Source: Escherichia coli
GTDB taxonomy: Bacteria; Pseudomonadota; Gammaproteobacteria; Enterobacterales; Enterobacteriaceae
Assembly: GCF_003334315.1 (NCBI RefSeq)
Contig: NZ_QOWR01000057.1
Strand: one strand, 5' to 3'
DNA length: 29,365 bases
The position numbers are program-made. Each line of letters starts with the position of its first letter. The stretch's first letter is position 1. Below are positions 1 through 3,000 of the stretch, piece after piece.

Positions 1-3000
1 AACTGATGGAGATGGAAGCCACGGGAGCACCTCAAAAACACCATCATACACTAAATCAGTAAGTTGGCACCATTACCGAGGCTGGCTATATAAAAATTAC
101 CGGACGCAAAAAAGATATTATTGTCCGCGGCGGCGAAAATATTAGCAGCCGTGAAGTGGAAGATATTTTATTGCAGCATCCTAAAATTCACGATGCCTGT
201 GTGGTTGCAATGTCCGATGAACGTTTAGGTGAACGATCATGCGCTTATGTCGTGCTGAAAGCGCCGCATCATTCATTATCGCTGGAAGAGGTAGTGGCTT
301 TTTTTAGCCGTAAACGGGTCGCAAAATATAAATATCCTGAACATATCGTGGTAATCGAAAAACTACCGCGAACTACCTCAGGTAAAATACAAAAGTTTTT
401 GTTAAGAAAAGATATTATGCGGCGTTTAACGCAGGATGTCTGTGAAGAGATTGAATAAGTTTCATCTTCGGGGATCACATAACCCCGGCGACTAAACGCC
501 GCCGGGGATTTATTTTATTTCTTCAGTTCAGCCAGGCTTAACCAGGTTTGCACCACGGTGTCCGGGTTCAGAGACAGGCTATCGATCCCCTCTTCCATCA
601 ACCATGCGGCAAAGTCTTCGTGGTCGGACGGACCCTGACCGCAAATCCCGACATATTTGCCCTGTTTCTTCGCGGCACGGATAGCCATCGACAGCAGTGC
701 TTTCACCGCATCGTTGCGCTCATCGAACAATTCAGACACCACGCCGGAGTCACGGTCCAGACCGAGCGCCAGCTGCGTCATATCGTTTGAGCCAATTGAG
801 AAGCCGTCGAAATATTCGAGGAACTGCTCGGCCAGCAAGGCGTTGGACGGGATTTCACACATCATGATGATTTTCAGCCCGTTCTCGCCACGTTTCAGCC
901 CCTGACGCGCCAGTTCTTCAACCACCGCTTTCGCCTGATCTACGGTACGCACGAACGGGATCATGATCTCAACGTTGGTCAGTCCCATGTCGTTGCGCAC
1001 ACGTTTCACTGCTTCACACTCCAGCGCGAAACAGTCGCGGAAGCTGTCGGAAACATAGCGGCCCGCGCCACGGAAGCCGAGCATCGGGTTCTCTTCATCT
1101 GGCTCGTAACGCTCACCACCGACCAGGTTGGCATATTCGTTCGATTTAAAATCAGAGAGACGGACAATGACGCGCTTCGGATAAAACGCGGCACCCAGCG
1201 TCGCGATCCCTTCAGTCAGACGACCAACGTAAAATTCACGCGGAGAATCAAAACCTTTCATCATCTCGCGGATTTCGTTTTGCAACTGCGGTTCCTGATC
1301 GTCAAACTCAAGCAGTGCGCGTGGGTGGACGCCAATCATACGGTTGATGATAAATTCCAGACGCGCAAGGCCCACGCCTTCGTTCGGTAGGCAGGCGAAG
1401 TCGAAAGCACGGTCCGGGTTACCGACGTTCATCATCACTTTCAACGGCAGATCCGGCATCGTTTCTACGCTGGAGCTTTTCACGCTAAATTCCAGCAACT
1501 CCGCATAGACGTAACCAGTATCACCTTCGGCACAAGAAACAGTGACGTTCTCACCGTCTTTCATCCGTTCTGTTGCATCACCACAGCCCACTACCGCCGG
1601 AATGCCCAGTTCACGAGCGATGATCGCCGCGTGACAGGTACGACCGCCACGGTTGGTGACGATGGCAGATGCTTTCTTCATGATCGGTTCCCAGTCCGGA
1701 TCGGTCATGTCAGTAACCAGCACGTCGCCAGGTTCGATGCGGTTCATTTCGCTGATGTCATGGATGACTTTCACCGGACCCGCGCCGATGCGATGACCGA
1801 TAGCACGGCCTTCGGCGATAATCTTACCCTGTGAATGCAGCGTATAACGCTCCATGACCTGACCGCGTGAGCGCACGGTTTCCGGACGCGCCTGCACAAT
1901 GAACAGTTTGCCGGTGTGGCCATCTTTCGCCCACTCAATATCCATTGGGCGACCGTAGTGTTTCTCAATTTGTACGGCCTGTTTTGCCAGTTCCTGCACT
2001 TCTTCGTTGGTCAGCGAGAAGATGTCACGCTGTTCCTGCGGTACGTCTTCGATTTTAACCTGCTTGCCGTGCTCCTGGGTCGGCGCGTAAACCATGCGGA
2101 TTTTTTTCGACCCCATGGTGCGGCGCACGATAGCCGGGCGATTCGCCGCCAGTGTCGGTTTATGCACGTAAAACTCATCCGGGTTAACCGCACCCTGCAC
2201 GACCATTTCCCCAAGGCCCCATGCGGAAGTGATAAACACCACCTGGTCAAAGCCGGATTCGGTATCAATGGAGAACATCACGCCAGAAGATGCGAGGTCG
2301 GAGCGCACCATCCGCTGAACACCGGCGGAGAGCGCCACGCCACGGTGATCGTAACCCTGGTGCACACGATAAGAGATGGCGCGATCGTTAAACAGAGAAG
2401 CAAATACATGTTTCACTGCCACGAGAACGGCGTCAAAACCCTGAACGTTGAGGAAGGTTTCCTGCTGACCGGCAAAGGAAGCGTCCGGCATGTCTTCTGC
2501 GGTGGCGGAGGAGCGTACCGCAAAAGAGGCGTTTTCGTCATCGGCGGAAAGCTGTGCATAGGCTTCGCGGATGGCGTTTTCCAGCTCAGGCTGGAAGGGA
2601 GTGTCGATAATCCACTGGCGGATTTGCGCGCCCGCTTTCGCAAGCTGGGTAACATCGTCAATATCCGTTTTATCCAGCAGTTCATAAATGCGCTGGTTTA
2701 CGCCGCTTTGGTCCAGAAACTGGTTAAACGCGTCGGCGGTTGTGGCGAAACCATTCGGAACGGAAACACCCATTCCGGAAAGATTAGTAATCATTTCACC
2801 CAGGGAGGCATTTTTGCCCCCAACCCTGTCTACATCATTCATGCCGAGTTGGTTATACCAAAGCACCAGCGGTGACGAGCCATTGTTGGACATCGAACAA
2901 TCCTTTTGTGATAAATGAACGGTTTGAGAAACACATTTCTGCGCATTTATCTTTGCATATTTAACCGGATGAAAAAAACGGTGAATCGTTCAAGCAAATA

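Follow-up and report, generated by a model that had tools for sequence, protein, structure and literature searches.

What brought an end of the insertion sequence IS1 into the fadK gene of Escherichia coli, and what became of the genes on the far side of that IS1, are the questions raised by the left end of a 29,365-nucleotide stretch of E. coli DNA (contig NZ_QOWR01000057.1 of assembly GCF_003334315.1; the whole stretch is referred to below as the window). At this end, a terminus of IS1 directly abuts the 3' part of fadK, a gene for acyl-CoA synthetase. The arrangement was very probably generated by insertion of IS1 at a recurrent hot spot within fadK, which left the left inverted repeat (IRL) end of the element, the insertion target and the last 126 codons of the gene in the window. 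The kind of event and the RefSeq annotation of such a junction are already known; what is added here is that one exact 9-bp site appears to act as a recurrent hot spot and to seed one-sided deletions.

The IS1 part of the junction was identified by megablast analysis of nucleotides 1-77 against complete E. coli genomes. Matches of 77/77 (E = 1e-31) were obtained to features annotated as "IS1 family transposase"; among 5,426 genomes, a total of 884 records matched at 99% identity or higher, and a match spanning at least 80% of the 77-nt query was found in 4,960 genomes. IS1 is an element of 768 bp with inverted repeats 23 bp long, and it encodes the DDE transposase InsAB' via a programmed -1 frameshift. 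The first-pass annotation had read nucleotides 1-77 as the reverse complement of an IS1 terminus followed by the start of insA, and the alignment bore this out at every position, the segment being equal to the IRL end (nucleotides 1-77) of the 768-bp IS1 of strain GmM062 (locus L002, 7310-8077, minus strand), for which the RefSeq label is IS1X4. Only 77 of the 768 nucleotides of the element lie inside the window, and their minus strand reads GGTAATGGTGCCAACTTACTGATTTAGTGTATGATGGTGTTTTTGAGGTGCTCCCGTGGCTTCCATCTCCATCAGTT. The same 77 nucleotides differ at eight positions from the IS1A/B-type copies examined at the fadK site and at five positions from the mosaic copies in loci L001 and L013.

The internal organization of this segment is also that of an IS1 end (Table 1). 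A terminal repeat of about 23 bp beginning with GGT(A/G)ATG is located exactly at the boundary, the start of insA lies about 55 nt within the IRL, and a promoter-like site lies in or beside the repeat. The GTG start of the window agrees with the RefSeq start of the insA coding sequence in L002, located 55 nt inside the IS1 end. The promoter-like site, which we take to be the insA promoter of IS1 itself, is directed leftward, into the element and away from fadK.

On the other side of the junction, nucleotide 78 aligns to nucleotide 1321 of K-12 fadK, which is codon 441 in an annotation of 566 codons (locus L004, coordinate 12298; NC_000913.3 position 1,784,297), and no difference from K-12 was detected over the first 1,439 nt after the junction. 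Translation from nucleotide 78 gives EAGYIKITGRKKDIIVRGGENISS... and ends after 126 codons at TAA 456-458. An in-frame TAA at 60-62, inside the IS1 part, closes this frame upstream, so that the frame opens at nucleotide 63 and fadK' is not fused with an IS1 reading frame; neither ATG, GTG nor TTG is present in the fadK' frame before the GTG at nucleotide 156. In K-12, fadK is uninterrupted and is followed by the convergent ppsA. The remaining statements of the first-pass annotation, namely an acyl-CoA synthetase frame beginning at nucleotide 78 with neither start codon nor ribosome-binding site, an in-frame TAA within the insertion sequence, retention of only about 126 C-terminal codons, and disruption of fadK at the IS1 end in an arrangement absent from K-12, were all upheld by the comparison with the K-12 fadK-ppsA junction. 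The junction and the identity of both its parts are far beyond chance.

The frequency of this junction was examined in the 5,426 complete E. coli genomes, using an 80-nt probe across the junction, counted where it matched without interruption, and a second probe for the opposite orientation. The junction in the orientation of the window, IRL/GAGGCTGGC, was found in 17 genomes and that in the opposite orientation, with the right inverted repeat (IRR), IRR/GAGGCTGGC, in seven, giving a total of 24 genomes with an IS1 end at exactly the same nucleotide as in the window. In five further genomes an IS1 IRL end is located elsewhere within about 400 bp, and about nine other IS1 junctions, at other positions, were identified in or beside the 3' part of fadK. 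With probes for the left junction (fadK...GAGGCTGGC/IS1), three genomes were detected in the window orientation and five in the other, and the right junction was present in all eight as well. Thus 8 of the 24 genomes have a simple insertion flanked by a perfect 9-bp duplication, and the left copy is gone in the other 16. The duplication was verified base by base in L008, L022, L023 and L024 (minus orientation) and in L009, L029 and L030 (plus orientation). Among the 22 complete IS1 elements measured at the junction in other genomes, 20 are 768 bp long, one is 766 bp, and that of L008 measures 879 bp across an assembly gap; the elements are annotated in the RefSeq records with "programmed frameshift".

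The copies of IS1 at the fadK site differ by up to 64 of 768 nucleotides and include IS1A/B-like, IS1X2-like and IS1X4-like isoforms. The right flank occurs in about eight haplotypes, six of them with single-nucleotide polymorphisms (SNPs) starting 3-136 nt from the junction, and both IS1 orientations are present within two of the flank haplotypes. An exact-protein look-up located the truncated product in 753 blocks of a public collection; of the 10 places returned, nine align to K-12 from the identical coordinate and seven carry IS1 there, whereas in the tenth, L013, the first target positions are ambiguous bases. These observations argue for independent insertions at the identical position: the two orientations cannot be converted into one another by homologous recombination, which leaves the same IS1 end next to a given flank, both are found with intact duplications, and the IS1 copies, of at least three isoforms, and the flank haplotypes differ. 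The conservative count is at least two independent insertions, and about 10 or more are likely. Judged from these sequence comparisons, the fadK site is a recurrent natural hot spot of IS1 insertion. In the literature searched, no description of an IS1 hot spot in fadK (ydiD) was found; the joint mention of IS1 and fadK that was examined was incidental, and none of IS1 with ydiD was found.

The 16 complete genomes without the left copy of the target have the far IS1 end joined to DNA located 5.3-8.8 kb further to the left. All of ydiQRST is lost in these deletions, together with the 5' part of fadK and portions of ydiF, ydiO and ydiP; aroD and ppsA never are. Among the deletion genomes and contigs examined, a total of 12 distinct left endpoints were identified between L004 coordinates 3480 and 6962 (Table 1), with the right junction constant. 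The pattern of adjacent deletion mediated by an insertion sequence, that is, an element retained between one fixed and one variable junction with no duplication, was found in the 16 complete genomes and in several draft contigs. It is one-sided: 16 genomes retain the right junction alone and none retains the left alone. All the endpoints lie within a 3.5-kb zone beyond ydiQRST that runs from the end of aroD to mid-ydiP, and none of the 12 falls in the 5.3 kb of the ydiP 5' part, ydiQRST and the fadK 5' part (for uniform endpoints, p = (0.395)^12 = 1.4e-5). The bounds of the deletions would fit purifying selection on aroD and ppsA. A 5-point difference in AT content (52.9% against 47.9%) and selection favoring removal of the entire ydiQRST may each contribute to the lack of partial deletions.

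The genomes L027 (stool, Gambia) and L028 (wastewater, Thailand), which belong to a single lineage, carry a plus-orientation IS1 at 3773-4540 next to a variant target, GAAGCTGGC. Their left endpoints are 37 bp apart, at ydiF +1582 and +1545, and the pair looks like a snapshot of stepwise extension of a deletion. At the fadK site, adjacent deletion is indistinguishable from recombination with a second, locally hopped IS1. The series, with hits on one site across unrelated E. coli lineages, forms a natural experiment, a clean and countable case of a dispensable gene block, lying between aroD and ppsA, being worn away as IS1 expands.

Table 1. Positions of the features in the window (numbered from its first nucleotide), and left deletion endpoints found in other genomes (numbered within each gene)
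Feature	Position	Strand	Basis and remarks
insA, first 7 codons (M-A-S-I-S-I-S)	1..22	minus	Sequence; GTG start at 22->20 = IS1 nt 56
IS1 IRL end	1..77	minus	77/77 identity to many IS1 copies; RefSeq isoform label IS1X4
Promoter-like site (P-IRL)	43..70	minus	Consensus scan: GTGCCA-16-TATGAT at 70..43
IRL, 23-bp terminal inverted repeat	55..77	minus	Read directly; minus strand = GGTAATGGTGCCAACTTACTGAT
fadK' pseudogene remnant (last 126 codons + stop)	78..458	plus	Identical to K-12 fadK nt 1321-1701; C-terminal lid domain only
9-bp IS1 target, right-hand duplication copy, GAGGCTGGC	78..86	plus	Simple insertions in other genomes bear the 9-mer on both sides
13-nt A/T-only run adjoining the target, TATATAAAAATTA	87..99	plus	100% AT
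Stem-loop, then T-rich run, between convergent fadK' and ppsA	478..525		Minimum free energy -20.1 kcal/mol; z = -3.2 vs shuffles
ppsA (phosphoenolpyruvate synthase, 792 aa), intact, convergent with fadK'	515..2893	minus	List of open reading frames; annotation of aligned loci
Second IS1 (IS1A-type; IRL plus 204 nt), ydjO-cedA spacer, inverted relative to the first	29162..29365	plus	Sequence; 0-1 mismatch to IS1A-type copies
Deletion endpoints in ydiF	+172, +1309, +1367, +1509, +1545, +1582		
Deletion endpoints in ydiO	+275, +999		
Deletion endpoints in ydiP	+458, +572		
Deletion endpoints in aroD-ydiF spacer	two points		

The following order of events is considered very probable. IS1 transposed into codons 441-443 of fadK (K-12 numbering; NC_000913.3 1,784,297-1,784,305), using the 9-bp target GAGGCTGGC, and in other genomes it landed at the same 9-mer, in either orientation, many times independently. 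The end of IS1 far from ppsA was then usually joined to sites further left, either by IS1-promoted adjacent deletion or by local hopping and subsequent IS1-IS1 recombination. Such joining erased ydiQRST together with the fadK 5' part and portions of ydiF, ydiO and ydiP, with aroD and ppsA kept.

How far the source genome of the window went along this route has to be judged from its relatives. Exactly 77 nt of IS1 are present at the left end, and the right-hand IS1 piece ends 77 nt past its only copy-specific SNP (127 + 77 = 204), as in a contig from a de Bruijn graph with k = 77; most probably, the window is such a draft contig in its entirety. Because the window would then be the whole contig, the left side of the junction is unreadable in the source record. 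For annotation in general, a contig that ends in exactly k nucleotides of an insertion sequence shows adjacency, not the structure beyond.

The source genome presumably followed the same route as the other carriers, with a deletion somewhat favored. On balance, the state to be expected is an IS1 accompanied by a leftward deletion, with its far end in ydiP, ydiO or ydiF or between aroD and ydiF, and with loss of ydiQRST and the fadK 5' part. This is the state of 16 of the 24 complete genomes and of 14 of the 17 in the window orientation; 12 distinct endpoints were identified in all. L021 (strain PS2Canimalfeces12), the sole sampled genome in which an identical 4.4-kb right flank is combined with IS1 at the site, is without the whole 8.8 kb, and L002, the other genome with an IS1X4-type end, has a deletion into ydiO. 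In addition, at least one complete genome with 100% identity to 25 kb of the window (L005) already bears another IS1 in place of ydiF'-ydiP. The deletion itself would, however, be located outside the window, and the IS1 of L021 is a different isoform (eight mismatches in 77 nt), so that L021 does not simply represent the same event.

A simple insertion, which is the picture implied by the first-pass annotation, with a full IS1, a second copy of GAGGCTGGC, and the intact fadK 5' part and ydiQRST directly to the left, can be put forward as a tentative possibility. Such a state is found in 8 of the 24 complete genomes with IS1 at the fadK site, and the lack of any mutation in the remnant relative to K-12 fits a recent event; it is, however, the minority state, seen in only 3 of the 17 genomes in the orientation of the window, and both L021, with the identical 4.4-kb right flank, and L002, with the same IS1X4-type end, are deletions.

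The right end of the window introduces a further alternative. The second IS1 carries a single difference from common IS1A-type copies, at IS1 nucleotide 127, and the two IRL ends face inward on the 29-kb segment from fadK' to ydjO, an arrangement that constitutes a substrate for inversion. If window 78-29161 had been inverted by IS1-IS1 recombination, the DNA to the left of the first IS1 would be that of the cedA-katE side. This is unlikely: direct evidence for the inversion is lacking, the right-hand junction is shared by no complete genome, and the two IS1 ends differ at 8 of the first 77 nt. The exact IS1 junction in the ydjO-cedA spacer was present in no complete E. coli genome, and eight genomes carry IS1 about 50-640 bp away; likewise, the IS1X4-type left junction in the flank background of the window together with the right-hand IS1 junction was found in no complete RefSeq E. 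coli genome. The gene order in the rest of the window is that of K-12 out to ydjO.

Some points weigh against recurrent insertion at one site as the origin of the junction. The insertions were counted on flank haplotypes. No difference separates K-12-like from window-like flanks over the first 1.4 kb, and some carriers could therefore share one ancestral event that was spread by recombination. Tests for the consensus of integration host factor (IHF) and for homology to the IS1 ends did not demonstrate a sequence determinant of the hot spot. Selection could be the cause of the leftward-only deletions and of the endpoint-free ydiQRST, as a proposal only. Finally, with only 77 nt of IS1 in the window, the completeness of the element, the left junction and the duplication all lie outside it.

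Carried to its end, the sharing of events would mean that the carriers inherited one or two old insertions from a common ancestor or acquired them horizontally, perhaps with selection for loss of fadK maintaining them, an account that we consider quite improbable. The identity of K-12-like and window-like carriers beside the junction is in its favor, as are clonal pairs among the carriers (L017/L018 and L012/L016), and the isoform could be altered through gene conversion between copies of IS1. Such an account, however, is not easily reconciled with both orientations carrying intact duplications, nor with six further haplotypes distinguished by SNPs within 3-136 nt of the junction, nor with left flanks and endpoints that differ. 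Moreover, under selection for loss of function, insertions should be spread over the gene and not repeated at a single nucleotide, and the other IS1 junctions in or next to the fadK 3' part number only about nine. An assembly artefact, in which a repeat k-mer formed a chimeric contig end, would agree with the contig signature of k = 77 and an IS1 part of exactly 77 nt, but is hardly credible, given that the identical junction lies inside 17 closed RefSeq chromosomes and that overlapping k-mers at the end of a contig reflect an adjacency really present in the reads.

With recurrent insertion retained as the explanation, the question arises of what makes this 9-mer a preferred target. IS1 has no known target motif beyond AT-richness, and it hops locally (PMC5009759). 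At the fadK site, the A/T-only run next to the GC-rich 9-mer is the only evident sequence feature, and the 30 nt following the run are 73% AT, the 97th percentile of the 16.5-kb K-12 locus. The hot spot may be caused by this abutment of a GC-rich 9-mer on an A/T-only run. An IHF site was considered as the cause and rejected as unsupported: the consensus WATCAANNNNTTR gave no match with 0-1 mismatch within +/-120 nt of the target, and the three two-mismatch matches near the target are close to background (149 in 16.5 kb, both strands). Homology of the target to the IS1 ends was rejected as well, the best local score of 6 being below the null mean of 6.7-6.9.

It is conceivable, though rather doubtful, that GAGGCTGGC/TATATAAAAATTA is a near site-specific target of IS1 and that the leftward ydiQRST deletions reflect selection against expressing the module without its synthetase. 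If this were true, dissection of the fadK site could reveal what the InsAB' transpososome recognizes in DNA, for instance a rigid or bent AT tract with a GC-rich 9-mer held against it. The fadK site in any case offers a concrete sequence for asking what makes an IS1 hot spot.

Other IS1 sites were noted in the course of this comparison. At two unrelated sites (L031 position 940 and L033 position 940), a GC-rich 9-mer is followed by TATA...ATTA and then by CGG, loosely as in fadK; the site in L033 reads CGAGCGGCG/TATAAAATTATCGCCGG, against GAGGCTGGC/TATATAAAAATTACCGG for fadK. A flank motif shared by three unrelated IS1 sites was discarded, for these sites were chosen by BLAST similarity to the query, which is a biased choice and proves nothing. 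A possible second reused position is located at the extreme 3' end of fadK (K-12 locus 12660-12669; L003 6372-7139, strain 30EVA1), where IS1 replaces the last few codons and RefSeq still calls fadK intact; four complete genomes show equal spacing there.

With respect to the product of the truncated gene, FadK is reportedly an anaerobic short- and medium-chain acyl-CoA synthetase, according to work of Cronan's laboratory. Enzymes of the ANL superfamily consist of a large N-terminal adenylation domain, a hinge and a small C-terminal lid. The fadK' product matches NCBIfam NF004758 (FadK equivalog) over positions 423-547 of 548 with 232 bits against a cut-off of 736, as expected of a fragment and not of a full-length member. 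The lid domain, PF13193 (AMP-binding_C), was detected on the 100-aa product, and the N-terminal adenylation domain PF00501 and a translation start are both missing together with the N-terminal 440 codons. From the NF004758 coordinates and general knowledge of ANL enzymes, the break in fadK is at the hinge between the adenylation and lid domains. RefSeq describes the identical piece in other genomes as "incomplete; missing N-terminus".

As fadK' lacks both a start codon and a ribosome-binding site, is separated from IS1 by the in-frame TAA, and is preceded by an IS1 promoter pointing away from it, it is predicted to be an inert, dead pseudogene. An outward hybrid promoter across the junction (TTGGCA in the IRL, 17 nt, TATATA in fadK) was considered and not called, for it has no T at position 6 of the -10 element. 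Expression of fadK' is doubtful in view of this failure to fit the consensus and of the stem-loop and T-rich run located 3' of the gene. This stem-loop was not called by a simple terminator scan; it is probably a shared terminator of the two convergent genes, and is listed here as putative. Since the promoter of ppsA lies at the far end of that gene, ppsA should not be affected. The source strain is accordingly predicted to be without FadK, and the whole ydiQRST-fadK anaerobic fatty-acid module has probably been lost. The practical meaning for the strain is small: FadK is lost, ppsA is untouched, and the ydiQRST-fadK module is dispensable in the laboratory.

The surroundings of the junction contain further IS1 copies. 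Window 78-25000 is 100% identical to several complete E. coli genomes, such as that of strain 2018-11-3CC (L005); in this strain fadK is intact, and a different IS1 (IS1B-type, plus strand) replaces the segment from ydiF nucleotide 136 through ydiP (L005 4085-4987). Other copies were seen in ydiF (L008 and L020), in ydiB (L021) and beside nlpC (L007), and IS1 appears to be abundant throughout the aroD-ppsA interval. Elsewhere in the window, two adjacent plus-strand open reading frames of 157 and 414 aa at 18875-20603 correspond to espL1, which is a frameshifted pseudogene in the RefSeq annotation of L005.

Compared with known systems, the junction belongs to the familiar inactivation of E. coli and Shigella chromosomal genes by IS1 (768 bp; 8-9-bp target duplication). 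The terminal repeat and the insA start of the window agree with this kind of event, as does the 9-bp duplication in the sister genomes, and the window differs only in isoform (an IS1X4-like end) and host background, not in kind. In closed genomes, RefSeq labels such a pseudogene "AMP-binding enzyme, incomplete, missing N-terminus" beside "IS1 family transposase", the same arrangement as here. Relative to FadK (YdiD), the acyl-CoA synthetase encoded in the ydiQRST-fadK cluster, the remnant has the sequence of the 3' end of K-12 fadK without change but keeps only 23% of the protein, without adenylation domain or start codon, and is therefore not a functional member.

As to hot spots, one for IS1 in pBR322 is said to be linked to IHF binding, whereas the fadK site is without a good IHF consensus. 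The fadK site resembles the pBR322 and IS186 hot spots in that the identical position is reused, in either orientation, by independent events. The IS186 sites, GGGG(N6/N7)CCCC, were struck up to 16 times in mutation-accumulation lines (PMC5009759).

The deletions at fadK are like IS1-promoted adjacent deletions in having one fixed end of the insertion sequence, nested far endpoints and no target duplication. The classical deletions promoted by IS1 are reportedly those next to gal. The long-term evolution experiment provides a documented case in which an insertion was followed stepwise by an adjacent deletion and then by its extension, and missing duplications have been attributed to adjacent deletion or to recombination between insertion sequences (PMC11708052). 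The fadK series follows the same multistep pattern, but as a natural polymorphism across many lineages. Unlike the known series of adjacent deletions, it is strictly one-sided (16 to 0), and its endpoints are confined to a 3.5-kb zone.

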